This document shows, piece by piece, positions 22,037 through 49,339 of a DNA stretch of 64,000 nucleotides (its first letter is position 1; each line of letters opens with the position of its first letter). The notes beneath the pieces were generated by a model. It searched no databases. It saw nothing but the letters and a program-made list of their open reading frames with translations, and was not told where the DNA came from. The DNA comes from Glaucostegus cemiculus (taxonomy: Eukaryota): contig CDPCPM010000005.1 of assembly GCA_976551045.1 (NCBI GenBank), positions 21,452,001-21,516,000 on the forward strand. Direction: 5' to 3'. A program made the translations under genes and the position numbers.

Positions 22037-22201
22037 ACTGTGTCATAGATAGATTATGGTGTGGTCAGCAGTGAGATATGATGAATATCTCCACTCATGA
22101 GGCTGACCATAATTCATTTGTGACTTCTCCAATCGTGAGTTATCTGATCAGCCTCAAGAGTAGAGATATTTATCATATCTCACTGCCAGGAATGACACAG
22201 T
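22037..22201. repeat. Palindromic (MITE-like) element
   Basis: Arms 22068-22116 and 22136-22186 are reverse complements with a few mismatches and one small indel. There is an outer 10-bp inverted pair, actgtgtcat (22037-22046) / atgacacagt (22192-22201). Confidence 0.85.
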
Positions 22202-29900: not shown

Positions 29901-30000
29901 AACCATTTAACCTGGGCCATTTTCATTTCTGTTGTTTCGCTGCGTAAAGCAGGGAAAAGATGTAAAGCAAGCCTTAGGCTTGGACAATACATCTGCCCAC
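27000..30000. promoter_or_regulatory. CpG-enriched, repeat-poor putative promoter/enhancer domain
   Basis: About 13 CpGs in 27361-27660, against about 2 in 36001-36600 (hand count). E-boxes CACGTG near 27374 and 29738. No recognisable transposon sequence. Confidence 0.5.
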
Positions 30001-30327
30001 ACAATGCAAGTAAGGGCATCAGAGAAGTGCAAGTGAATCTGAAAAGACATATCAATCAACAATGCATTAGAGCATTTGAAAAGGAATGTCAACATTTAAC
30101 TGATACATTGCAACAAAATAAATTGACATGAAGTTTAAAATAGTCTGTAAATTTTTATTCTCAAATAGAAGTTTTAATTGAGGGATGGCAAATGATGTAA
30201 ATAAACACCGTCTTGCAAAACACTGGTGTATTGCAATATGGTTATGATACAGTGTTCAAGAAAATTGTTTATTAATTAACCACGAACAAACAATTTGCAC
30301 TATTCAAGTAAACCTGGGTCCCACATA

Positions 30328-30377
30328 CTGTTGCTGGCAACAGCAAATGTAAGAGTCTTCAATGGCCCTTGACGTCA
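30328..30377. promoter_or_regulatory. RFX X-box-like palindrome plus a perfect CRE
   Basis: ctgttgc-tg-gcaacag at 30328-30343 and TGACGTCA at 30370-30377. Confidence 0.4.
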
Positions 30378-32904
30378 GTTGGCCACGACTATGGTTTGAA
30401 GGCAAAGTCTGCTCAATCAATGCAGGAAACAAGCAGTTTTCAAGAGAAAACCAAACAATGCTCTTATATCCTTTCTCCTGTTGCAAAACCCTGATGACAG
30501 CAAATTTAGGCAAATCCTTTATTTATTGTCTCTGGAACCACTCCAGTACAAGAAAGTTCTTTCCATCAATGACAAAATCTCCTTCATTTATACACATGAT
30601 CAAACAGCTTTCTGTCACATGACAGCTACTTGCTGCCTACCACATTCATTACACATTAACCTTTACCACACCAATCTTTTTTAACAATGTCAATTGCACA
30701 TGTCACAAGATTTTGACAAACAATGTGGAATGTATCCTATCACTATTCTAAACTGATTACTAAGTTATTGCTGTCTTCCACATCATACTGCAGCATGGCA
30801 TAACAGGTTAAGTCTCCTTCAAAAATCTACCCTTTCACTTTCTCACACATAAAAATAGCACATAGATACTCACAAAATTAAAAGTTTTGTGCATTTAAAG
30901 ATAACTAGAAATATTCATAAATGTGAAGAAAGTCTGTTACTTGTTGAGTGGAGATATGAAACTATGCCAGCAGAGGAGATTCACATAGATTTGGAACGGA
31001 AATTCTCCCAAAGCTTGAGAAAACAGAATCTACAAATATTTTAAAGAAGTTATATAACTGTTTTACAGTTAAAAGCAAGTATATCCAACCATTTTTAATA
31101 AAGAGGCGCCTTTGGATTAGTGATGCTGTGTGTTACTAAAGCCTCCAAAGTAAATAATAGTTCAAGCATTGCATCTGGAAAGTGGGAAACCCATAAAGAC
31201 CTGATTTCTCAGGAATGTAACAGAGATTTGCAAAGTGCAAGAGATCTTGAGGTCACTATTACTGAGTAGAAGCAAGTGACATGAGGTTAAAAATCTATAT
31301 GAACAAAAATCACATGTATCCCTGATTTAGTACTGGTGTCATGTACAAGGCTTGAGTACAGGGTGGACAGATTCAGGACACCAGAATGTATTGTATTTCA
31401 GCAGATTTGTCAATTTTGTTGGTGGGAGAGTAAATAGATCTTGCCTACAACAGGTAGAAGCTGTTTTATTTTATTGGACTTTTAAACTAATGTAACATAT
31501 ATTTTGTATGCATTTCCAATTAATGTCTTACAGAGGAATAACATTTTGAACAGAATTAGAACATTGTCACACAGGAAAGAGCAGGGACAATGCTATTACC
31601 ACTTGGCCTTTGTCCATGTTTAAAAATCACAAGATGATAATAAATATTCATGAGCATTCCCAGAAGCTAAAACTTTTGGTTGTGCCCAAAATAATCATGC
31701 TAGCTGCAGGAGTAACTTTATTACGATCTGAAGAACCATATATTACTTACCAGATGCTGTGGCATTTTAAGAAAAAGTGTGCCCAATTAATCAAACAACA
31801 CATTTCAATAATGTTTTAGAAACTCTTTTGCATGCACTCTGAGCCACACATTTTGCAGGAAATATTCCTGGCTGCAATAAACATTTTCATTGTTAAGAGG
31901 AATATCACTGGCTAGCCTTCTGTTGTGCAGTTTGATTTGCCCCAATCAATAGATGTGCACACCCATTCAGAGGCAAAAGTGCTATGATAAAGGGGATATT
32001 TTGCACAACATGGCAATGCTTAATTTGAATGATATTACACTTAATTTTATCAGTGAATAAATTATATGAAGTGATTAAATTCAGGTAGAGTTTTCCTTTA
32101 AAGGAAAATCACCTTGTTAGCCACATATCCTGTTATTTTTCATGTTCTTAAATTGCAGCTGTTGCAAGTAAGAAATGGAAACATGTTTATCTCTTTTCAG
32201 TTAAATTACTTTATGCCTGACAGAATGACAAGAACATTTCATTTTTGTTTAAGTAGGAGTGTAAAGCAATGAAGTTAAGTGGCAAGATGTGTCCATTTTA
32301 AATATAACAGCAAAATCATTTTAAAGGACGCTATGGTGTTTATAGCCCAAGGTCCTGGTTTTGCGAGGTCATTAAAGAAGACAGAGAATCCAATAAATGC
32401 TGCAATTATTGCCTTAACAAACTGGTGCAAGTTATAATTCAAGTTTAATGAAAAATTAAAATGCTATAATCTTAAAATGTAAAAGATTTTGTGTAACTCT
32501 CTCTATAACATGGCTTATTAATTTTCAGAGCCTTTTAATCAAGCTGAGGATAGAAAATAAAATTTAAAAAACAGATTATTATTGGTTTAAAGGACATGTC
32601 CTGTTCAAGGTTGGGTTTTAGGCTGCATTTCCAGGGGCTTATTATACTGTCACTTATTATAACTACCACACAATCTTTAGTGGGACTACTACCAGATTTA
32701 AAAATGAAACTGAATTCTTACTCTAATGTAGTCAATTTCTATCACTGGATAGAGCCTCTATTTCTCAAGCTACCTTTGGAAGCTGAACTAACTGTGTTAA
32801 AATGAGCTAGACCCTCTTGGAAGCTTTCTCTATTAATGAAATAGCCATAAACAATGTGTGATATTAATGGCCACAGAATATTAGGCAATGTTAATGGAAA
32901 TCAA

Positions 32905-33145
32905 AAAGCACACCGCAGAGGTTGCAAATGTGATTTTAAAATAGAAAACACTGGAAGTACTCAGAAGAAGATTCTTCTTTCCTGCACAACTTCAGTCAAC
33001 TGAGAAACAGAGTTAGATATTTTCAGGTCAATGACCCTTCTTCAGTTCTGGTGAAGGGTCATCAACCTGAAAAGATAACTCTGTTTATCTCTGCACAGAT
33101 ACTTCCTGATCTACTGGGTATTTCCAACATTTTCCATTGTTATGT
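32905..33145. mobile_element. Palindromic pair of Penelope-type terminal repeats
   Basis: 33003-33045 and 33048-33090 are imperfect reverse complements around cag-tt-ctg. The outer segments gaaaacactggaagtactcag / ctgggtatttccaacattttc also pair. Confidence 0.75.
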
Positions 33146-34544
33146 TAGCAGAAAATCTATTGTGTTCCTCCATTGGTGGAAATTTGGTAGGGTCTTCATT
33201 GCTTGCATCCTCTAATTGTATTACCTTCAGTTCATCCCATGAAGAATGAGTATGCAAAGCAAAAGGAACATAAATTTTTAAAATATAAAAAGGTATGCTT
33301 ATAAACAAGTAGTCAATTCACCCAGCTTCTATCATCCTGACAAATCATATTTACATACCCCCTGTCTTGATTCCAAATTCATTTTCTTTGCTTCCAACTG
33401 AGAAAGGAATCTGTTCATTTTCTTCGTCCATGTTTTAATGATTGTTCCTGGTAAGAGAAATATAATGCTTATGCATGATTGTGCACCAATTTCATCCTGT
33501 GTTCATTCCACAAAAATTACTTTTTCCTCAACCTTATTTGTCCCCCATATAACTTAAAAGAAAAACTTGCCTCAAATGCAATTCCATTTCCATCTCTGAT
33601 CTCCTTTGTCTTTCTTTAAACAGAAACAGAATGTGCCAGGACTGAGCATTTTCCCTATTGCTTCACTTTGAAGCCTTATTAATAGCATCTCAGAATATGA
33701 CTGGACTCAGGACTTCATCTGTGATGCAAACAATGCTTGAAATTGTCAATATTGTTTTCCTGTAATTGTAATGTATGAGTTTTCCCACATATTCACATTT
33801 GATCACTATTTAGTTTCCACATATAGTTAATTTGCTCACTCAAATATATGTCCTGCTTTGCTTTATTTAATATGCAACCCCTTATTGTGAAATTATGTTG
33901 CTATTTTCTCATATAATTTATATTTCATAATAATAAATACCATTTATTATTTAGCTGCCTAAGTGTCTGCAGATTACTTCAAATACCAATTGACTGGTAG
34001 GCCCTTCTTTCCTACACATCTTGGCACCTATAAACAAAGAAGATTTATTTACATTAGTCAAGGTCACTAATTAATTTTGTAGTAATGAATCCTGGACCAA
34101 TCTTCAGAAAAACCATGCTAATAGCAGTTATGCAGTAAAACTATTAAGCTGATAACTAAACTGCACTATCTTTTATCTGGACAATTACTGTAAGTTACAA
34201 CTTTATCTTTAGATCCCATGACCCATCACTTTGCTCATTACAGATCCTATGGCAGACTTTATTCTTTGCTTTCTTAAAGTTAATTGAATCATTAACTCAA
34301 TGATGTGCTCTTTAGCCATGACTTGCTTTTCATAATTCACACTGACTTAGAATTACTGCTCGTTTTGCAACATAAATGTCTAAGCTGAGAAAAATCATTA
34401 ATTATCAAAATTGTAGTGGGTACATATTACAGCAGTGTCACAAAACCTCTTACAGCAGTTCTAATTTCATTTAGTAGTTTTAATGTAACAAGTCCCAAAA
34501 TTCTCTGAATATTCATCAAATTGTTCAGAAAGTTCACCAAAGGC

Positions 34545-34972
34545 TCAGCGGGCATTAGTCTTCCCTCTGAGCCAGGGACCTGAACAAAAAAAGATGAAGC
34601 CTACCCCTCCAAGCTAAACTCTGAATAATCACTGTGGCATTGAAAGGTATTTATCTTTCAGATGAAGCTTAAATCAAGTATCCAAGGTCCACTTATTCTT
34701 GGGTGAACATAGCAGATTGCATGCTTATGTTTTGTAAAAAAGCATTAGAGTTCCCTCAATTATCTTAGTTGTCATTTATCTCTTGACCACTGTTTAAAAT
34801 CAAATTATCCAGTCTTTACAGGTGGCTCTTTAAGGAACCCACTTGTGTGCAAGTTACTTGCCACATTTCCTGCATTGCAGCAGGAACATTCATTACTTCA
34901 AAAGCTATTTCATTAGTTGTTATGGACATCTTGAGTTGGTGAAAGATGTTACAGGTGAATTTTTATTCTTTT
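34545..34972 (+). mobile_element. Highly degraded DeuSINE-like (SacSINE1/AmnSINE1-type) element
   Basis: tctttcagatgaagcttaaatcaag...cttgtgtgcaagttacttgccacatttcctgcattgcagcag...acttcaaaagctatttcattagttgt follows the Deu-domain and 3' layout as I recall it. A second 3' fragment lies at about 35200-35270. Confidence 0.55.
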
Positions 34973-35489
34973 ATTGCTCATGTTATGTTATTACAAGCTA
35001 CTATTTTCTGCAGAAATTAAAAGTTGTTTTCAGCTACCTTAATTATGGGCCTCATAATGCCACTAATTAGTTTTTGCATTGGTGCAGTAATTTTTTTACT
35101 GGAAACCATAATTTGGCTGAGTGCAACAATCAGTTCAATAACAGTTGACAAACTATTGAATACAACATAGTTAATACAATAAGCTATAATACCCCTATGC
35201 TATAACAGTGACAACAGTTTAGAAAACACTACTTTGGCTGCAAAGCACTTTGGGGTATCTTGAATTGCCCCATATACTTGCAAGTTCATTTCCATTCTAA
35301 TATAATTAAAGAATACAATCATGATAATGCAATTGATGCATGCAGTAACTAATTTAGTGGGAAGCATTATTGCCATACTAAACCCATAATAAATTTTAGT
35401 AAGCAACTTCAGTTTTCTAACCAAATCTGGAAGTTGATACAATAATTTGTTTCATCTAATCAGGAAAAGGAAAATATGTAACTCCACAC

Positions 35490-35800
35490 ACAGTGTTGGT
35501 TTACATGGACCATCACAACTGATCTACCTCATATCACTTCCCAACACTAACCCATATCCTTTGTTTCCCTTAATATCCAGAAATCTATTAACCTTTCTTC
35601 TGAATGAACACAATGATAGAGGCTCTCAACCCTCCAAGGTAAATAATTTCAAAGCCCTACCATCCTTTGAGTAAAAAAAAACATGTCCTAATCAGTCCTA
35701 AATGCCCTACCTTTTATTCTGAGACTGCTCAACCAAGGGAAACATGCTTCCTGCATCTATCCCGTTGAGATCTGTAAGAATTTTCTTAGTTTCAATGAGA
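35490..35800 (-). mobile_element. Old CR1-like LINE 3' fragment
   Basis: cccatatcctttgtttcccttaatatccagaaatctat...tgtaagaattttcttagtttcaatgaga (LIET.KIL on the minus strand). Confidence 0.65.
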
Positions 35801-38217
35801 AATACATTAATTAGTTTTAATTGTTCATTAATTAAGTGCATTAATTAGTTTTAAATGCCCTTAATTTAATTGTTTAAATTTTTAAAAATTATAAATACTG
35901 GCTACTCAAAGACCTACAGGTGTGAGGGTAAATTTAGAATACATAATGTAAAAGCAGTAAATGCTTAAAACATTCAACAAGTAAGGCAGCATCTGTGGAC
36001 GGCAAAAGATCATAACTCATTTCTCTTTCTGGAGGTGTTGTGGAGTTTTTTTTACTTTTTTTTTAGTTTTTATTTCTGGTTGACAACATCCGCAGTACTT
36101 TGCTACCATTGCAGTGTAAATTCTAAGATTATATGCTACCCCATTTCTATGATATCTAAATAGTGATCCCAGTCCTGGCTGCTATTACAGATTTTAAACT
36201 CCTCTCCCTGTCTCTGCTATACAGATATATTTTAGGCAGGAGCTGGAAAGAACCTTGGGTTTGAGGAAAAGAGTGATATAAATATTACAAAAACTACCTC
36301 TGCTTCAACCATTGCTGTGACAATTATATATATTTTTATTTTCATACAAAATTTTTAGCAATTGTTATTATTGTATATTTTAATAGTATATTTTCTCTTC
36401 AACTGTGGTTTGTTTTATTTTCCTTCCCCTTTATTTTGTTCCTTGATCTTAACTAATTAGTTCTGATTCTTAATGTTGGCATAATATTTACATATGGTGC
36501 ATATTGCATTTGCACACCCTCTGTCATGTAAATGAAAAGTGATTTTTGAAATATCTTCTTTTCAAGTTACCATTGCTACCTCCCCAGTTCTTCCCTCAGT
36601 GCTCTAAAACTGGCTTTCAATTAATCCTCACCACAATATCAAACCTAATGATATTATAATTGCTGATACACAGTTTTCTCCAGCCCACAAATTTGCCACC
36701 ATCTTAGGCACACTCCTAAATACTAACTCAACCATAGCGTCTTCTCTGATTCCCCTTTTAACCTGCTGCACCACAAAGCAGTCTTGTATTAACTCAATAA
36801 ATTTGCCTCCTCCTTTTGAAGAATCCCCAACCTCATCCTGCTTTAATTTCGAGTAATTAAAATCGCGCAGAATTAAACCCTCCCTTTCTTTGATGCAGCC
36901 TTTATTTACTTGGATAATTCTATATCATTTTTTTCCTCTTTTGCCCTGGTGGACTACAGCACTTCCCAGTTATTAATTTGCTTCCTTTGCTGTTGCAGTT
37001 TTCCACTTAAATTGACTCAGACCTCCCCTCATCTGAGGTTAAATCAACTATTTCAATAACTGTCAGATCCTCCTTACCGACAAAACTTCCCCTCACCCAC
37101 CCTGTTTTCCTCTTCATTCCATATATTTTAAACCCTGCTAAATGAAACTCATTTTAAGATAACATTGCTGTCAAAGGGCTTACATTGGTTGATTATATTG
37201 CTACAAAGTGCGATAAGACATTTGGTAATTCTCTACAGATGTGCTGCTTTTTCATTGCTGACATTCCCTGGTATGTCAAACAGCCTGAGGTTGTTATTTA
37301 AAACAATTTATATGCAATGATGTATATCAATGCTACATTATTCTGATTGAGATTTAAGTTTATATATTGTAGAGTATGAACAGAGATGAATCTTTAGCTG
37401 TTATGCATAGCTTGTATATGAATCCTGTAACAAAGTTAGACTATTGAATTTAAGATATTTGGATGGTTATCTGTGGTATTTGAATAATTCTAAATGTATA
37501 ATTCAATTATGTAGATTATTTGGAAATGCACATGAAAAATCAACACTGTAGTAACTAAACCCTGCTTCGTTCTGAATTAACAAATAAAAAGCTTAGTCTT
37601 ACCTAGAAATAGGTGATATACAGATAATGAGCAATCTGCTATATTAACAATGCTCACAGTGAAAATGGACAGTGCATTGCAGTGTTACATAAATCTAAGA
37701 CAATAGAAAACCGTGGAAGAGAATGGAGAATTAATTTAACTGTAAATTACATTCAGCATCTACTTAAATCAAAATCGGTTATGTAGGAATATACCTTATT
37801 TTAATTTTTAATTTGCAATTTTAAAATATTTGTCTTTGCTTATCTTAATTAGGAGAGCTGAGTTATAGTTACTGAGATTTTAACAATACCATACTTGATT
37901 TTACTTTCATTGCAGTTTATGGTCCCTACTTATTTCTCAAAAGGCTTTGCTTCACTATTGTGTACAACGAAGGGACAGAATTTCAATTTATATGCCACTG
38001 ACATTATCCAGTAATTTTGATATCACTTTACTCTGCCATTGCTAGGGAAACTTGACCCAGCACTATTAGAACAGTCACTGAGACTTGTACATTGGCAGAA
38101 CCTTTTCCACTTCTTGACGTGAACAAATTGACCTGGTCCTATTCAATACACAATTTGGCTTGCAACAGATAGACAAGAAAATTGACTCCCTCATTAATTT
38201 GCTATTATACTAAACTA

Positions 38218-38523
38218 CCATCTGCTCCTCTCAGCCTAGGGATGGCACCATTCTGACCTCCTTTGGATCTTCTGATAGTCAACCCAATGGGATTTCTTGG
38301 GTAACCTTAACCATCCACTTGCTTGATGTGTTATTCTTGGAGCCTGACCCTATGGAGGACCTTAATTAATGGCCAATACCAAAATTTGACTTCATGTCAT
38401 CCAATGTTCTACAAAAATCAACTGCAGCAAATTTAACAATTAGCATTCTGATTCAAAAATATTTAATACATTAATAATGTTCACTCATATTTATTGACTG
38501 AAGCCACATTAAATGATAAATTG
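38218..38523 (+). repeat. Left arm of a 306-bp inverted duplication (probable donor)
   Basis: Reverse complement of 39395-39700; 2 mismatches found by eye. Confidence 0.95.
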
Positions 38524-39171
38524 TTTTGCTCGATAATAGTGCACCTGTATAGACTATTATTTATCTTCCAGTGGCAGTGCCATAAGGTTACTTTGTGTCC
38601 TATGCTTTTTTGCACGCACTCTGGAAAATGTGCTGTGCGTTGATGCTGAATCTTATTGAAATAATAAATTTTTCAGCTTTGTAACATTTGTTATTATCCC
38701 TTCAAGTATACCATGTAATATGCTACAATCATAGTAATTACCTTGTACAATTCATATATTGTTTACAAAATCCGAAAGCTTCTGTGTGATTCCATCGTAG
38801 TAATTGTTATTAGATTACAAATTTCTCAACCATATCAGAAGCTAAGTGACAGATTTGTGACTAAGGATTTTTCTTACCAAAAGAAGTAGTCAAACTCGAT
38901 TTGAAATGAACCATGTTTGAACACATTTATGATTAAAAATAAATATTTGATTGAAAATTTAATCTTTTCTCCCCTTTTTTCCAATTTCTTACTTGTCCTG
39001 TGAGTGCTAATTTTCTAAAGCTTACAATGAACAGAACAACTTTAGCTTTGATTGCAAGAGATATTGGCCATATTTATGAATCATTATAGATTATGATTAC
39101 CTGTTGTTACTACACCATTGTTAAGCATTTTATTGAGGATATATAATAACTGAGCAGGAATAAGCCTATTC

Positions 39172-41060
39172 GTAAATTGGTTTATTATTATCACATGTAC
39201 TGAGGTACAGTGAAAAACTTGTCTTGCTTACTGTTCATACAAATCAATTCATTGTAACAGCGCATTGAGGTAGTACAAGGTAAAACAATAACAGGGTGCC
39301 AAGAAAAGTACTACAGCTACAGAGAAATTGCAGTGCAGGCTGACAATAAGGTGCAAGGTCATAACGAGAATAGACTGTGAGGTCAAGAGTTCACCAATTT
39401 ATCATTTAATGTGGCTTCAGTCAATAAATATGAGTGAACATTATTAATGTATTAAATATTTTTGAATCAGAATGCTAATTGTTAATTTTGCTGCAGTTGA
39501 TTTTTGTAGAACATTGGATGACATGGAGTCAAATTTTGGTATTGGCCATTAATTAAGGTCCTCCATAGGGTCAGGCTCCAAGAATAACACATCAAGCAAG
39601 TGGATGGTTAAGGTTACCCAAGAAATCCCATTGGGTTGACTATCAGAAGATCCAAAGGAGGTCAGAATGGTGCCATCCCTAGGCTGAGAGGAGCAGATGG
39701 AACCATTCAATAGTCTTATAACAGTGGGATAGAAGTTGTCTTTGAGACTGGTGGTGTGTGCTTTCAGGCTTTTGTATCTTCTGCCAAATGGGAGAGGGGA
39801 GAGGAGAGAATGTCTAGGTGGGTGGAGTCTTTGATTATGCTGGCTGCTTTATGGAGGCAGCGAGAAGTGTAGACAGAGTCTATGGAAGGGAGGCTGGTTT
39901 CCGTGATGTGCTGAGCTGTGTCCACAACTCCCTGCAGTTTCTTGTGGTCACGGGCAGAGCAGTTGGCATACAAAGCCGTGATACATCCAGTTAGGATACT
40001 TTCCATGGTGCATTGATAAAAATCAGTGAGGGTCAAAGGGGACATGCCAAATTTCTTTAGCCTCCTGAGGAAGTAGAGGCACTGGTGAGCTTTGTTGGCT
40101 GTGGCGTCTACATGGTTGGACCAGGACAGGCTATTAGTGATGTTCCCTCCTAGGATCTTGAAGCTCTCAACCCTTTTGACCTCAGTACCGTTGAGGTAAG
40201 ACAGGAGGATGTGCACCTCCCTCCTTCCTGAAGTCAATGACCAGCTCTTTTGTTATGCTGACATTGAGGGAAAGGTTGTTGTCATGACACCATATCACTA
40301 GACTCTCTATCTCCTTCCTGTACTCTGACTCATCATTATTTGAGATACAGCCCACTATAGTGGTATCATCTGCAAACTTGCAGGAGTTAGAGCAGAATCT
40401 GCCCATGCAGTTGTGGGTATATAGGGAGTAGAGTAGGGGGCTGAGGTTGCAGCCTTGTGGGGTACCAGTGTTGAGGCTTATCGTGGTGGAGGTGTTGCTA
40501 CCTATCCTTACTGATTGCGCTCTGTTGGTCACGAAGTCAAAGATCTAGTTGCAGAGGGAGTGTTGAGTTGCAGGTCTCGGAGTCTGGTGATGAGTTTGCT
40601 TGAAATTATAGTATTGAAGGTGGAGCTGTAGTGAATAAACAATAGTCTAACGTAGGTGTCTTTACCGTCCAGATGCTCCAGAGATGAGTATAGGGCCAGG
40701 GAGATGGCATCTGCCATAGACCTGTTTCAGCGGTAGGCAAATTGCAGTGGGTTGAGCTTGTCTGGGAGGCTGGAGTTAATGCATGCTATGACCAGCCTCT
40801 TGAAGCGTTTCATGATGATGGGTGTCAGAGCCACCAGGCAGTAGTCATTAAGACATATTACCTTGTTTTTCTTAGGTGCCAGGATGATAGTGGTCTTAAA
40901 GCAGGTGGGAACCTCATATTGAAGCAGGGAGAGGTTAAAAATGTCTGCAAATGCCCCCATCAGCTGATCAGCACAGGATCTGAGGACACGGCCAGGGACA
41001 CCATCTGGCCAGGTCCTTTCCGTGGGTTCACTCTCCGGAAGACTGATTTACATCCACAAT
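39172..41060 (-). mobile_element. 5'-truncated Rex1/Babar-like LINE with a frameshifted RT pseudogene
   Basis: Consecutive minus ORFs 40727-40960 (IFNLSL..EVPTCFK..LNDYCLVALTPIIMKRFKRLV..LQFAYR), 40529-40717 ([15 protein letters not shown]), 40182-40532 (TGTPQGCNLSPLLYSLYT..KFADDTTIVG) and 39764-40237 (LYFLRRLKKFGMSP..MESILTGCIT). The 3' end reads aataaaccaatttac. Confidence 0.92.
39395..39700 (-). repeat. Right arm of the 306-bp inverted duplication, inside a LINE 3' region
   Basis: caatttatcatttaatgtggcttcag...aggctgagaggagcagatgg is the reverse complement of 38218-38523, flanked on both sides by LINE sequence. Confidence 0.95.
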
Positions 41061-43971
41061 GATGACTGCGGGTTCAAGTAGTCCACTGGACAGACTAAGC
41101 ACTGGCTCAGTGGTCATATTTCTACCTGTTAAGCGTGTGCAAATATGAAGGAAGTTTGAAGATTAGAATTTTGACAATCAGAAAAGGTTTTGTGCGTAGG
41201 AATTCCAGCATATGTAAGTAATTTGGTATCTGAGAATTCCATTGATGGTAGATAAATAAGTCGGAATCTTAAGAATGCAGATGGATAGGCAATGAATTGG
41301 TACTGAGACATTCAATTCAATACTCACATCAAAACCTTGCCCGGACTTGATTTGCCACAAAGGTGAACAGTGGATGAATGTGAAATGTTCAACTATTTTT
41401 ATTTTGTTTATGGGTGTAATCATGCATGACAACTGGTAGATAATTAATAGGCAATATTATCAAGATGAATTGGGCAGCAGAATTGCATGGTTGCAACCTA
41501 ATTAAGGGGTTAAATGTCAATATATAACATAAGAAGGAAGTCTGGGTATTTCCTCCCAAGATGTCTTTCACATTACTATTATTAATCTGTTTGAAGGACA
41601 AACAGTACAGTGTGTTGATCTTCCCATTTCTGCCTCTGTGTTTTAGCATATTGTTTAAATTCAGGGATTTTTGCATATGTTTCACAGTAAGAGCAACGTT
41701 CTCCAGCACATTATAAGTCTCCTGTTGATGGATAAAAGGAGTCCATTAGTAAGAGTGACAAATGGGAAGCAAAAGCTATTTTCCTTTGTTATAATTTTCT
41801 TTTACTGCCTTTTGTGCTGTATAGTTCAATAACTTACCAAGTAGGCCTCTATAACTCACCACGTATGCCATTCTTCATTGGTGTGGCGGCAGGCTATTTG
41901 ATTATGGATGCATTGTAGTTAAGCCCAAACGTCACCTCCTGCAGTATGTGCTCATGGATACCAAGGGTTCCTGAAGGGCAAGTGGAATCCCTTGCCACTT
42001 TTTTGTCTCATATTCAGGAGCACTTGAGAATAAATCTTGTACCTCCATGGCCTTCCTGTATAAGATCAACTGCTCAGAGAACCAGTGTAAAGCTTTTGTG
42101 TTGTTCTGGCTCAATACAGCACCACACAGCACAATTACTCATCAGTGGACCCTCTACTAGTTTTGAAGCGATTTCCTTTTAATCTCTAGTGAATTTCTAA
42201 AGTAAACTGACAGCTGAGTATAATCCAGTCTGACATTCAGAGATGGGCATGAAAAGTTTTTGTGATGTTACCGGAGGTTTACAAATAAATTGCAGCAGTT
42301 AGAGGGATACTGTGTCCAGTATGATATTATAACCTTATATCCACTGAACCTTAGTTCAAGGTCACAGCTGATGTGTTCAGATTGGATTAGAAGACTTCAC
42401 TTTTTGCAACTTTTTGATAAAACTACCAGTGGAATTTCTATGGCCTTAAAATTATGCCCTGGGATTTGATGGTCAAACTCTAATGCATTCCTCTTAATTT
42501 ACTCTTGCAATTACATCAGTGAAAGGTCCTAGTGAATATTTAAGCATACATTCTTTCTTTCTAGTTTACGTAGCTTTAAAGGCTCATGTAAAATAATGGA
42601 AAGGCTAATTTTGGTTAAACTGTATTATTCCATTAAAAGAATGGCTCTGTATGGTTATTGAGTGGGTCCTTATGAAAGGACCAGTAGTGAGCTGTTTCTA
42701 CACCAATTGCTTCTCTCCTCTGCTACCACTACAGCACACCTCCATCCCACTACCATTTCTAACATCCTTTTCCAATCCATTTCCTTTTGTTGCTGCAGCA
42801 TCAAAGCGACATATTTCATTTATACAACTGCATAATGAGCATTGAAAGACTGTTGAACCAGAGGCTTACTAGCAGGAGTTGCTGATAACAACTGGGAGGA
42901 GGCAGAGTCCATCTAAAAGTAATTTGCTTACAAATGCAAACACATGGCCTTTTCTTGCCACAATGTTACACAATGGAAAATTAGCTTTTATCCAGCATAA
43001 AATCTGAGAAAAACCATTTCTGGCTCATTTTGTTCCACTGGAAATTTGATGGACTCTTTCAGAAATGAATCTGTACATGGCCCACACCTGCAACAAATTT
43101 TTCAGAGCACTGTGGCCGTTGCTGTCCTGGGCACTCCTAGGAGAAACTGATCTCCCCAGCACTGGTCTAGTCTGGGAATACACGAGTCAGTCTGTTGCTT
43201 ATCTTACCTCCTTCGAATCATTCACCTACTCCTCCCCCCACCCTCCCATGCTCTACCCACCAGTCTGTCTCAGCTCTGCAATCTTCTGAATCCCAGCCTT
43301 TCACCTCTCCAAACTACCATCCCGTGTTCTGCTGAGGTGACTAATGGAGGCCTCAATCTCATCCACCATCCCCCGTCACTAACTCTATCCTTTTTGCAAT
43401 CCTTCTTTCTCTGCTCACTTTCCTTCTTTAAGACTGGCTCTCTCCATGACCCCCAATACTCTGATGCTTCTCCTGACTCCAACTCCCCACCACTCCCAAC
43501 CATCCCGTGGTTCACAGCACAGTTCTGATTGGGCCTCGGTACCCACTATCCTGACTGGGGACCGACAACTGGGGTGGGGAGGACGCATTTTCAATTAAAA
43601 TGCAACATCCATTCTGTGGCCCATGGGCTCAGGCTGAACTAACAGTTGTACTTCAGCCCGGCAACTAACTGCTCTGCAAATATTCATCTAGTGCTACTTT
43701 TAGCTGCAGTGGAATTTCTAGGCCAGTCTATTTTAAAAGAAAGCATGTCCAAACCTAGTTTTACAAATGATTTTTGCAACAGTAAAGAATATTGAACAAC
43801 ACCTACTCTGTAGGAGCTGATGCTGATTTTATTTTTATGCTCGAGTTATGGTGAGGATGACAAGACTAGATTTACTGACATGCCTACCTGACTGACCTTC
43901 CACCTAAATGCTGTAGATGTGATGATGACTCTCACAAGGGTGTTAGGCAGGGAATTCCAGAATTTTGATTA

Positions 43972-44097
43972 ACAAAGGAACTCAGCAGGTCAAGCAGCAT
44001 CTGTGGGAGGTAAGGAATTGTCAATATTTCAGGTCGAAACCCTGCATCAGGTTTGTTTGTTGCTTCGGATTCCAGCATCTGCAGTCTCTTGTGTCGC
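43972..44097 (-). mobile_element. Penelope-type terminal repeat fragment
   Basis: ggaactcagcaggtcaagcagcatctgtgggagg...tttcaggtcgaaaccctgcatcagg, followed by an opposite-orientation end, ttccagcatctgcagtctcttgtgtc. Confidence 0.7.
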
Positions 44098-44162
44098 CAG
44101 AATGTTGGTCATGTGATAAGATACAGCCATAATGATGTTCAATTTAGCAAAGCTATCGATCG

Positions 44163-44605
44163 TCCCAGGAGTTGGGATATTTCCAGGCAGTAGTAATCTT
44201 CTCAGGTAGTCCTAGAACATGTGAATAGTTCCAGGGAGTGGTAATATTCCAAGGGGCTGATAATATTTCCAGTGTATGTTGATTTTCCCAGGAGGTGGTA
44301 ATACTTCTGGGTGTGCTGGTAGTGCCAGGAGAGGGGATATTCCCTAGTCATAGAGTTATACAGCACGGAAACAGGCCCTTCGGCCCAACTGGTCCATGTC
44401 GACCAAGATGCCCTATCCAAACTTCTGGCGATGTTCCCAGGAAGTGCGAATCTATCTGGGGTGGTGATAGTCTAAGGAGGTAAGAATATTCCCAGTGGAA
44501 TATTTCCACCCCATGGCACCATCACCACTCCCTGGGAATATCATCATCTCTTGACGCTACCACTAGGCCCTGGATATATTACATACGTCTGGGAATATCT
44601 TCTTG
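44163..44605. repeat. Degenerate ~19-bp minisatellite with an orientation switch (foldback-like)
   Basis: Left units such as tccagggagtggtaatat and tcccaggaggtggtaatac; right units such as atcaccactccctggga and tgggaatatcatcatctct; centre aatattcc-cagt-ggaatatt at 44485-44504. Confidence 0.65.
44345..44422 (-). mobile_element. Short CR1-like 3' tail inserted in the minisatellite
   Basis: agtcatagagttatacagcacggaaacaggcccttcggcccaactggtccatg. Confidence 0.8.
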
Positions 44606-45019
44606 ACTACAGCCACCCACATTTCAAATCAATCCCCCCACACAGCATCAAACCTCACCATCCTTTAATGCAAAGAAAATGGGTTATAGCTAAGGTCTAA
44701 CATTATAGTTAAGGTCTAACATAATATTGCTGATGTTGATGTGCAGACCACAGGATTGCATTATGTCCACAAAAAGGATACGGTACTTTGTTCGAGTTAA
44801 ACCTGGTAAAAATAATTATGCAGAGCTGAAGCCAGAGAAGTCAGTGGGGGAATGGGAGTTACAGGAGATGGCCATTTAAATAACCACTTAATCGATGTTT
44901 GGATATAAAGATCATAATTTTAAAATTGCCTTGTGAGGCAAAAGTTGAGGGTTTGGTAAACCATAAGAAGGCTGTAAAAGGACCTAGCCAATTTCATGCC
45001 ATGGCACTCAGGTGGCAGC

Positions 45020-45388
45020 AATACATTAGAAGTGTGAGGGGTATAGACGTGGTAGTGCAGGTATCTTTCCACCATATCAGAGGGGAATAAAACTAAGGGG
45101 ATATAGATTTAGGGTAAAGGGTAGGAGAGTTAGAGGGGATCTGAGGGGGACTTTTTTTTATACAGAGTGGTGAGTACTTGGAATGTACTGCTGGAGGAAG
45201 TGGTGGAAGCATTGTCGCTAACAGTATTTACGAAGTGTCAAGATGAGCATTTGAATCACCTGGGCTCTGAAGGCTATGGGCCAAGTGCTGGAAGATGGAT
45301 TAATATGGATAGGTGCCCACTGGCCGTTGTGGACGTGGTAGGCCAAATGGCCTGTTTTCATGCTGTAAAGCTCTATGACTCTATGATC
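45020..45388 (+). mobile_element. CR1-like LINE 3' end
   Basis: ORF 45167-45394 reads VVSTWNVLLEEVVEALSLTVFTKCQDEHLN..EGYGPSAGRW; tail ctctatgactctatga. Confidence 0.85.
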
Positions 45389-46322
45389 ATGTAGCAGGAC
45401 TTTGATGGGATTGACTAGAAAAGACCACCTACTCTACAAAGCCTGCCTCAGACACCCCTGATGCCTCGAGTAATACCCCACCCCTATCAGGTAGTCTTCT
45501 ACAAGAAATACCTATGCAGGTGCTTTAAAAATGTTAGCATGACTTTTATATCTTAGGAGATGTTAAAACCCCACCAGAGCTTTTTACACAGACCACTGCT
45601 TACCAGGCACGCAGCAACAGTGTTCATTAACAGCTCGATGGGATGCCATAGAGATGAGGGAAAGGGGAGTTGGGGGAGGGTGGGGAGAAAATTGAGGAGG
45701 GAAGGGAGAAATGAGGATGGGGATAGAAGAGAGGGAAACCGAGGGTTCAAATGGTGCATTAGTGAAGCTCTGAGCAAAGAGGTGATAAACCACATCCTCA
45801 ATGTGAGGCACAGTGTCATGATCACATGATCAGAGTGGGGATGAGCTGGAGACCACAACCCCATCCCTTGCTGGTAGCTGATGTCTTTATTAAAATAAAA
45901 CTCAGATGGAACAGTGACTGCTTCATTAGATAGAAAAACAATGTCCTTTCCTTTAAATCACACAGGTTTCATTCCTGTCATTTTGATACCCTCCTCCTCA
46001 CTACAGATGCAGGTCATAATTGTCAGTTTTCTGACCCACCTTGTGTTGTTAAGCAAAATACATGTGGGAAATGACATAAGCATCATTGCGAATCACATTA
46101 GGAAGTGCCCTGTCCAACTTTCCAGTGGGTTGAATTTCACCAGGAAATGTATGCAAACACCACAAAGTGCTTACAGAATCACATGCTACAAATTATTAAT
46201 ACCAAAAAAGGGCTGCAAATTATTTTTTTATATTTCAGTTACTGGGCAGGTGAATTTCCATAGCCCCTCTAGAATTGGACATGGCATTTTAATTGATAAG
46301 AAGTTAATTGTAAAATATTAGT

Positions 46323-46500
46323 ATCAGAATCAGAATCAGAATCAGTTTTATTGTCACAACCATATACATACATGGTACGCATAGGAGCGAGATACCGTCC
46401 TCCACAGGAACACGTCTCATAGAAAAGAATAACATAACAACCAACAGAGAGACACATACACACTTGGCAGAATACACAGTACAAAACATTACCCATTAGT
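46323..46500 (-). mobile_element. Short LINE 3' UTR fragment with an (ATTCTG)n tail
   Basis: The minus strand ends gacaataaaactgattctgattctgattctgat. Shares cctgtggag.acggtatctcgctcctatgc with 63432-63520. Confidence 0.75.
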
Positions 46501-47774
46501 TCTTACATAAATAGATCTTAAAGTGAACGGGCTGGTGTCAGGCATTTAAAGTGCTGGTGCATTTCTGTGCACCTAGCATCAATTCAGCATCATCACTATG
46601 AATCAGTGGTCTTTTGTGCCATCCAATGCCCCTTTACGTTGCCATTTTACGGGCTCTCAATCTGCTGCAGCATTTTAATAAACACACTTGGTGCCACTCC
46701 AATTCAGAGGGAACTCAGGTTTTCCAAAGCTCAACCAACAGTATAGTGCAAACTATACTGGCATTGACCACCCTCCGGCTGAGTGCTAAAACCTCACAAA
46801 CAGACAAACGATAGAATTAAAGGTGTTATGAGTACGATGGATCAGCAAAAATGCATGTGGCTAGAAACTATCTCAATTGTCATTGTAACCCCATATATAA
46901 AACGGCCCACAATTTAAAATATCACAGTTGCTTCAGCTAGATGTGGGTCTGCAGTGAGGTGTAAATATGTAATTACATGATGATGGGGTTATAAAAATGC
47001 ATAAACTTATCAACAACGATCAATTGCAAAGATAATTCCTCTGAGAGGAATGTGAGTTCACATTGCAAAGGTGTAAGGATGAAAGTGTGACTCGCTCAGC
47101 TTGAACCATCCAAGTTCAACACTTCATTGTTCTGAACGCAACTGGTCTATTTGAACTATATATTCTTGTATCAAAGTAACCTAATAATATTTTTATAATT
47201 AATTGTTTGAGGATATAGTGTGCACCAACAGAGTGCCTCTTCTCATGCAAGGGGTAATGTTTAACAGGAATGCATGGACACATTGACACGTACCATTGAA
47301 TATAATGTGTTCCTTAAAGACTGGTAATATGTAATGTATCCATGGGGACTTTTTGGGAGGGCTTGTCTAATGAATCATGAATATATCTCTATATGTCTGT
47401 GTATTTGCCAGGTTTGGCTTCTTTCATACATGAAAATCAATTAAACTGATCTTTTTAACAAATGGAATGTTAAAGGAAAACTGAAGGTCAGGATCCCATG
47501 TGATCTAGTTTATCACATCATTGTATACTTCAAGGATACAAAATAAAATTCAGTTGATGAAACTGTTATCATGGTTGGTATCATTCTTTGAACACATGCA
47601 ACGGGTTTTGAGGAACTCTATTAGGATATAATTCCATGCCTTTGATACATACATTACAAAAAGTTACAGAACACTTAAACTAAATATAAATCAAAGGCAA
47701 AAACTGAAAAAAGGCAAAAAAACAAAAGTTAAATCTGAGGACAACATTTTGCCTATGTCTTTGAAAAGATCCTC

Positions 47775-47942
47775 AACTTAACATTTCAGGTCAATCACCT
47801 TTTGTCAGAATGATTCTGAAAATAGGTCACTAAACTGAAACGTTAACTTGCTTCTCTCCACTCAGATGTTGAATGTCTGCTGAGTATTTCTAGCATTTTC
47901 CATTTTTATTTCAGATTCACATCATCTGCAGTATATTATTTT
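47775..47942. mobile_element. Second palindromic Penelope-type terminal repeat pair (older)
   Basis: ttaacatttcaggtcaatcaccttttgtcagaat-g-attctgaaaataggtcactaaactgaaacgttaa, then ctgctgagtatttctagcatttt. Confidence 0.65.
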
Positions 47943-49339
47943 TGTATCCAGGATGGTGACACCTGTTCTTTTTTCATTTGTAGGCTAGCCAGTGAGTAAT
48001 GAGAATGATGTACTATTCTGGAAAAGGCAGCCATAGACATAAAGGAAATGTTTGGGTTGAGACTAATAACTGAAAAGAGTGACATAAATCCACTTAAATC
48101 ATATTGTGAGCTCTTCTCACAGTTTAGACAGAGCTGTATTAAAGAATATTTCAAAACCTGTACAATAAATGAGGAGAGGTCTACTGGTATAGAATTACAT
48201 CAGAATATTGGCTTTTATAAGTTTAATTTATTTGAGTGAGCATTTCAGTTACTCTCTTGGTATATTTATTCAGCATTTTATTGATAGCTACACAGCTATG
48301 ATATTTTATTTAGTAATAGGCTGTCGAGAAATGCAAAACTGAGCAGACTTCAAAGCGGAACCTCAAAGGAAAACCCCAAAGGAAAACGTGTTTGAAATAA
48401 TCATTATGCAATGATCTTAGATTTAGTTTCTTTATTTTATAAAATCAGCAGTAATAAAAATTATATTAATTTTTCCCCTTTTCATTCTTGCATTGTAGAG
48501 AGAAAAAGTGTTCAGCAGGCTCCTAGCATCCTTTGGGATAACATGCAGCTGTTTCTAAATCCTCCACCTCCATGACCTCCACCTGCAGTTCTGGGTCACT
48601 TGGCAGAGGATGTTTGCTCTCGCAGGCTATTCTTAATTTCTGCCTGCTCTGTGTAATTTCTCTCAAGAATCTAAGTTATTTTGGATCACCTTAGGTAGTA
48701 GGGTGTACTAACCCAAATTAGATTTGGTTCAGTTTATATGCTCCATTTAATAGTTGGGTTGGGCTCAGTCGAATAATTTTGCTGATTTTTATTTTAAAAA
48801 TAAAAGCAACATTGATTCTTATTTTGAAAAAAAAAGTGCTATTTTCAGTGGATTTGTGATCATAGATCAACCTCTGCCTCCCTCGAAATTAACCAGTGAC
48901 TTAGATGTAGAACTAGGTGCCAGAGTGGTTTAGAAGCACTCATTCCAACCAATAGACTTAGGTTTATATTAACCCAGACTGATAGTGTGGCTTACCCCCC
49001 CCCCCCCCCGGGTTCTTCAGTAAAATAAATTTGTTGCAGTCTCAAGCAGGCACTTCCGTAAGTATGAAACTACAAGTAACTTATTGTAAGCTCCCCTTTT
49101 ATCTTCTAGCTCTCTGCACTGATAATAGAAGCTTTATGGAATGGTAAGGAGAGGACCGTGTCTACCATTGATTGGCGTTGCAAAGCCCCACAATTCTATT
49201 CAAATATCTTAGGTGGGGTATTAGAATATGCTTAAAATGTTGTTCTCTCTTTCCTAAAGGGTCTCACTCTTAAAATCATACTTACATAACTTTTACCTCC
49301 CATATCCTTTTCATTCCTCCATTATCTCAAAACTGTGTA

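Follow-up and report, generated by a model that had tools for sequence, protein, structure and literature searches.

We have identified a 306-nt inverted copy of probably non-coding DNA, apparently conserved among rays, lodged in an old, dead LINE, and consider it highly probable that this young, lineage-specific copy is a patch left by synthesis-dependent repair, that is, a proximal repair-mediated duplication (RD). What makes the locus stand out is the possible doubling of a putative gene-control element. Positions below refer to the window, the whole 64,000-nt stretch of DNA analyzed, which spans 21452001 to 21516000 of contig C5, unless a contig is named.

Geometry of the repeat and the scar in the LINE

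The preliminary description had reported two 306-bp arms, 871 bp apart, with only two mismatches, and recomputation returned all of these values exactly. The arms occupy positions 38218 to 38523 and 39395 to 39700 (306 nt each, with an 871-nt spacer), and self-BLAST aligned them without gaps and with exactly two mismatches, at 38392/39526 and 38432/39486 (E value, 6e-156). The strings quoted in that description and its junction between right arm and LINE likewise agree with the sequence. The locus is composed as follows.

38218 to 38523, no strand assigned: left arm, the donor; single-copy, probably non-coding and, by its divergence, conserved in rays, with the derived changes C>T at 38392 and A>T at 38432
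38524 to 39394, no strand assigned: spacer; approximately 645 nt of unique DNA in ancestral orientation, followed by the LINE 3' tail
39167 to 39394, minus strand: LINE 3' tail, old and common to the relatives; other copies align from 39167 to 39176 onward
39395 to 39700, minus strand: right arm, the acceptor with the inverted 306-nt copy; ancestral letters at both mismatch sites
39701 to 41080, minus strand: LINE body, 5'-truncated and frameshifted (RVT_1 and C-terminal PF09004 pieces); in the longest alignment, the match to another copy extends to 41076

When the segment from 38100 to 38700 was used as a query against its own 2.85-Gb assembly, the two candidates returned (2/2) were the left arm and the right arm. 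No third copy of the arm was found in this assembly by the same search, which may miss weak matches, such that the lack of a match does not prove rarity. Elsewhere in the window, positions 22068 to 22186 hold a 42-nt inverted repeat that is 90% complementary and has a 35-nt loop.

The LINE broken by the right arm is a high-copy element (10,444 candidates genome-wide, of which 40 were scored) and matches the Pfam families RVT_1 and PF09004. PF09004 marks the ORF2 of Rex1/Babar elements, and the two matches fit the earlier term "Rex1-like". That the LINE is far more decayed than the copy inserted into it was confirmed: it is frameshifted and has a CpG observed/expected ratio of 0.23, and its identity to other copies does not exceed 84% in alignments longer than 500 nt (within 1.26 Mb) or 92% in alignments of approximately 200 nt to the scored genome-wide matches (40 of the 10,444).

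The empty-site joint was read from paralogues, for which 28 other LINE copies were fetched, 26 of them with both flanks. The LINE flanks on either side of the insert are contiguous in other LINE copies, and at the insert position 22 of the 26 carry 15 nt, the remaining four carrying 7, 7, 13 and 570 nt. At the insert, the LINE has lost 13 to 15 nt, including the ORF2 stop codon (in 22 of 27 anchorable copies, the stop lies at most five codons from the break). The loss is given as a range because the microhomologies, 1 nt (C) at the left junction and 2 nt (GG) at the right junction, can, as judged from the paralogues, be assigned to either the LINE or the donor; they are short and could be due to chance. 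Neither a poly(A) or poly(T) stretch at the junctions nor a target duplication at the insert beyond 3-nt chance words was found. Another copy of the same LINE, on contig C22 (L031:1727-2277), carries an insert of approximately 555 nt a few bases from the same position; no template for it was found in its 3.2-kb locus, and there was no listed match in the 1.26-Mb set.

Direction and age of the copy

Eight of 24 sequencing runs were compared, namely X1 and X13 (organism A), X2 (B), X5 (C), X11 (D), X14 (E), X19 (G) and the RNA run X21 (C). In X2, X5 and X11, a single contig leads from the LINE 3' end (extending from the spacer to 39218, 39188 and 39195, respectively) through the spacer into the left arm and onward, and none of these three relatives has a further long contig on the arm; X14 and X19 contain one arm copy each. 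Since the relatives' contigs are continuous through one arm, we identify the left arm as the donor and the right arm as a young copy specific to this lineage; the spacer is ancestral in orientation, and the LINE insertion is older than the split from organisms B to D. At the empty orthologous site, the relatives share the LINE 3' end and one arm copy, and a bridging contig across the site is absent; joints that skip the insert in the relatives' contigs were set aside as belonging to other LINE copies.

These contigs also bear on three earlier proposals. The copy had been held to be far younger than the LINE, which is upheld by relatives that share the LINE and carry the arm once; that template switching or break repair had captured neighboring DNA in inverted orientation is supported by the junction and the relatives' contigs together. 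As for the third proposal, that the arms could mediate inversion of the spacer, the relatives' contigs show the spacer to be in its ancestral orientation; no inversion is seen, and one is ruled out for the assembled allele.

All five relatives (B, C, D, E and G) read the right-arm letters at both mismatch sites (C and A), and both mismatches are therefore derived changes in the donor, with the copy retaining the ancestral state. Two changes in 612 copy-bases correspond to 0.33% per copy which, if both copies are neutral, places the duplication at approximately 10% (1 to 34%) of the window's branch; constraint, or conversion between the arms, would make it older.

Another lineage shows, at almost the same spot, what appears to be a further inverted local copy of independent origin. 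In run X19 (G), the segment from 38144 to 38191 recurs in inverted orientation near position ~39200, with 4 of 48 letters different, located 97 letters beyond the place matching 39108; loose letters suggest a start near 38122. At 38971 to 38975, the window has a pyrimidine run that is one base longer than in X1, B, C and D, representing either an allele or a homopolymer error.

Conservation and genomic setting of the donor

Compared with the right arm, 0 of 306 positions differ in B, 1 of 306 in C and 4 of 299 (plus a 7-nt gap) in D, whereas the spacer differs at 42 of 694, 33 of 664 and 40 of 683 positions, respectively, which amounts to a divergence of 0 to 1.3% in the arm versus 5.0 to 6.1% in the spacer. 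One-sided Fisher tests of arm versus spacer gave P values of 1.5e-7 (B), 3e-5 (C) and 6e-4 (D) with the right arm as the reference and of 1.6e-5 (B), 9e-4 (C) and 5e-3 (D) with the left arm as the reference, and these values are not independent, since the three comparisons share the window's branch. The spacer accumulated changes at 22 or more of 642 sites along this branch, a rate at which approximately 10 changes would be expected in the arm; 0 were seen in the copy and 2 in the donor. These arm-level counts cover B, C and D; in G, the piece covering the donor (88 of 969 positions different) and the left-flank piece (118 of 1,282) differ by about equal shares, and this run adds no support. 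To judge by divergence, the donor is conserved, and probably non-coding, DNA among related rays, so that the description of the left arm as "unique-looking" proved right with regard to copy number but too modest with regard to conservation.

The donor lies outside the coding spans of SPATA17, RRP15 and TGFB2 and has stops in all six of its frames. A coding exon in the donor found no support in a Pfam scan covering 89 of the 132 window frames of at least 70 amino acids, which yielded only LINE matches and two subthreshold DUF matches. A 51-codon open frame does occur at 38214 to 38366 (plus strand), in which 38234-38235 read AG and a GT follows near 38302, making a short exon possible; no Pfam match was found for these 51 amino acids, and the same frame, in the right-arm copy, continues the LINE's broken ORF2. 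Exact searches of metagenome contigs with 20- and 21-nt donor motifs returned 0 matches each, a result that is uninformative on deep conservation.

Along contig C5, the donor is flanked by the following genes.

Contig C5, before SPATA17, minus strand: G-patch exon
Contig C5, 21057496 to 21274790: SPATA17 exons
Contig C5, 21490218: donor, after SPATA17 and before RRP15
Contig C5, 21588001: CpG island taken as the start of RRP15
Contig C5, 21601931: Rrp15p match
Contig C5, beyond RRP15: TGFB2 exon 1 (E value, 6e-42)

This places the donor between genes: the last SPATA17 coding exon lies 215 kb upstream, which rules out a position within a SPATA17 intron, and the presumed RRP15 start and TGFB2 follow after approximately 98 kb and approximately 144 kb, respectively. 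The nearest SPATA17 proteins are from rays (best match, 98%), which marks the genome as batoid. ESRRG, RRP15, SPATA17, TGFB2 and USH2A are the genes of one listed cluster that comprises 72 ultraconserved non-coding elements (UCNEs; PMC3436827), and the donor resides in the orthologous block, in the order G-patch exon, SPATA17, donor, RRP15 and TGFB2. UCNEs, however, are human-chicken elements whose definition asks for at least 95% identity to bony vertebrates, whereas conservation of the donor is known here among related rays. Because it is conserved and located within a UCNE-rich gene block, the donor probably serves the ESRRG-SPATA17-RRP15-TGFB2 block as a distant enhancer, a putative role read from conservation and position only. 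The extra copy was most likely tolerated and has acquired no new function.

A different reading shares the repair origin but has the copy share or take over the putative regulatory job of the donor, which would thereby be released from selection. The working or back-up enhancer would then be the inverted copy in the dead LINE, with the original starting to decay, amounting to a relocation at its very start in a slowly evolving ray genome. We regard both parts of this reading as unlikely, even though both post-duplication changes are in the donor and none is in the copy. With a rough relative rate of 0.17, taken from the arm/spacer divergence, the odds of placing both changes in this way would be 0.02 for a constrained donor and a neutral copy, 0.25 for equal copies and 0.73 for swapped roles; the placement is unexpected (2%) if the donor is still constrained and the copy neutral, and we treat it as a lead, not a result. 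It concerns two events only, however; moreover, the donor changes may be segregating alleles or part of a donor haplotype brought in by recombination, and flanking conserved sequence may be missing from the copy. Ultraconserved elements are described as depleted from copy-number variants, with their duplications reported to be disfavored (PMC4207606). Were the copy active while the donor decays, the locus would matter more, for this reason and because an enhancer hand-over is hard to catch directly.

Class assignment and competing origins

The locus is most probably a proximal RD, a known and common kind of mutation that the preliminary description did not name. As described by Pace et al. (2009; PMC2671141), RDs are inserts of at least 50 nt in a transposable element (TE), with one donor at a distance between 50 nt and 5 kb (peak near 1.2 kb) and a length of up to 619 nt (median, 147 nt); they are lineage specific, and their scar consists of a 1- to 15-nt deletion, filler or 2- to 9-nt microhomology, and no poly(A). 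Here, a 306-nt insert (≥50 nt, and under ~620 nt) interrupts a TE. The insert is not itself a TE and has one other genomic place only, in a search that may miss weak matches, and its donor, 871 nt off, lies within that range of distance. The deletion spans 13 to 15 nt, with GG at one junction and C alone at the other (from paralogues), and the insert lacks both a poly(A)/(T) tail and a target duplication of the retrotransposition type. In size, distance and scar, the locus falls inside the ranges described for RDs (PMC2671141); it differs from them in that the insert is about twice their median length, in that microhomology at one junction is limited to 1 nt and in that it is the copy that bears the ancestral letters. 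An inverted RD, of an ACSBG2 exon, is among those described (PMC2671141). Duplication of conserved elements by this route has already been reported as well, with PhastCons segments in 82 of the donors of the 824 human RDs (PMC2671141). The survey is described as covering mammals, chicken and zebrafish, with cartilaginous fish not among the groups it names (PMC2671141); taken in its most likely form, the present locus adds a clean case of this known class from a group outside that survey and is usable as a lineage marker. Repair-mediated duplication in sharks was not found among the literature matches listed, which is weak evidence for its absence from print.

Mechanistically, the LINE would have suffered a break or fork collapse that freed a 3' end, which may have primed on the opposite-sense strand approximately 0.9 kb off; 306 nt would then have been copied backwards from the donor, and the far side of the break would have been rejoined via the GG microhomology. 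Read along the plus strand, synthesis would halt at 39394, resume at 38523 in the opposite sense, proceed back to 38218 and return approximately 14 nt beyond its start, a switch order that would be 3-2-1-4 in the four-point model. The type 3-2-1-4 / 1-4-3-2 is reported to make up 31% of high-confidence human-chimp events (bioRxiv 10.1101/038380). As in the four-point template switches described (bioRxiv 10.1101/038380; PMC7954356), a switch, a reverse-complement copy and a return produce an inverted repeat; those events are short-range, however, whereas here the jump is 0.9 to 1.2 kb and the copy 306 nt. The inverted local template, the microhomology and the small acceptor loss are also shared with MMB-TIs and local 2-jumps, but the search for MMB-TIs was confined to 100 bp, and local 2-jumps are larger, somatic events. 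The scar does not reveal whether a break was repaired by synthesis-dependent annealing or a stalled fork switched templates, since either would produce it.

Self-alignment of a 1.264-Mb set (C5:20852001-21716000, 864 kb; C10:20000001-20200000 and C54:30000001-30200000, 200 kb each) revealed 22 pairs less than 10 kb apart whose arms have no other match in the set, 12 of them inverted and 10 direct, with 86 to 99% identity. No other inverted pair is as long as the 38218/39395 pair, which is also the most alike. At thresholds of ≥50 nt and ≥85% identity, 21 pairs in the 1.264 Mb lie within 5 kb, 0 at 5 to 900 kb and 1 between contigs, the window's own pair, chosen rather than sampled, being counted in the 21. 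Of three inverted pairs checked genome-wide, one had its partner only and two had further matches at no more than 83%; having no other close genomic matches, these three are taken to be local copies, too. A bridging test on four other inverted pairs, run on a small local library, found no clean interrupted repeat. The density of local pairs, ~17 per Mb versus the reported 0.08 to 0.65 RDs per Mb of TE DNA (PMC2671141), could point to a high repair-patch load in rays, with the caveat that the methods are not comparable.

An assembly artefact, in which one heterozygous donor had its other allele placed in inverted orientation in the LINE via a chimeric read, we consider very unlikely. Organism A hardly departs from the window, the long X1 pieces showing 0 other letters and 1 gap. 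In favor of the artefact, X13 holds both arm versions, T/T in a 257-nt contig and C/A in a 98-nt contig (with one gap that is not present in the window's right arm), and the two could be alleles; no contig across either copy junction is listed in X1 or X13 (depth 2 to 4.5, with patchy cover), the contigs of both runs continue unbroken past the donor ends, and the insert is missing from all relatives. An artefact would, however, hardly produce a clean switch-and-return with a 13- to 15-nt deletion, nor would an assembler error yield an age series such as that formed by the 21 other pairs, which share this geometry at 86 to 99% identity. Depth over the shared part of the arm (4.2 in X13 and 4.45 in X1 versus 2.5 to 2.8 in the flanks) is also approximately doubled in both runs once low-count truncation is allowed for, and, together with the presence of both versions, fits two copies better than two alleles, albeit weakly, depth being a poor measure and X13 possibly being the assembly's own sample. 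Neither the holes of X1, which span most of the arm, nor the small-share runs entered the evidence.

Similarly improbable is an RNA-templated patch, i.e., a class 2 TSIP (templated sequence insertion), for which an enhancer or intergenic RNA would have been reverse-transcribed into the break. Size, microdeletion and microhomology would also fit such an event (PMC5110952), and a conserved donor could well be transcribed. However, class 2 TSIP donors are described as distant (PMC5110952), while the donor here is 871 nt away; in addition, a splice or poly(A) mark is absent, and the strict 5-kb clustering of the local pairs points to a DNA template.

It had also been proposed that the arms form a double-stranded RNA (dsRNA) stem serving as an ADAR or endo-siRNA substrate, a suggestion that went unsupported, the site being intergenic with no known transcript over it. 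The corresponding explanation, a long-hairpin locus under selection for producing dsRNA, siRNA or an ADAR substrate, is more doubtful still. An RNA over 38218 to 39700 would be predicted to pair 304 to 305 of the 306 arm positions (approximately -735 to -755 kcal/mol), but such a fold follows from any repeat of this kind; furthermore, the hairpin is absent from the relatives, there is no compensatory change, and there are 0 Rfam matches in 30000 to 48000. The hairpin is a by-product of the duplication. The RNA run X21 (C) had 0 reads at the locus among the 11 million records read (~18/100 of the run), which is no test of expression. That a DNA transposon or MITE contributed the arms as its terminal inverted repeats would suit the inverted geometry, but this idea is largely refuted and carries next to no weight, given that no third copy was found, that one arm is ancestral together with its flanks and the other breaks a LINE, and that there is no target duplication.

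By contig, seven of the local pairs are found in the 200 kb of C10 and one in C54. Two inverted pairs in the self-alignment set appear to be very young, namely, C5:21319815-21320249 (95 nt, 98.9% identity, spacer of 245) and C10:20086266-20086957 (120 nt, 98.3% identity, spacer of 452).
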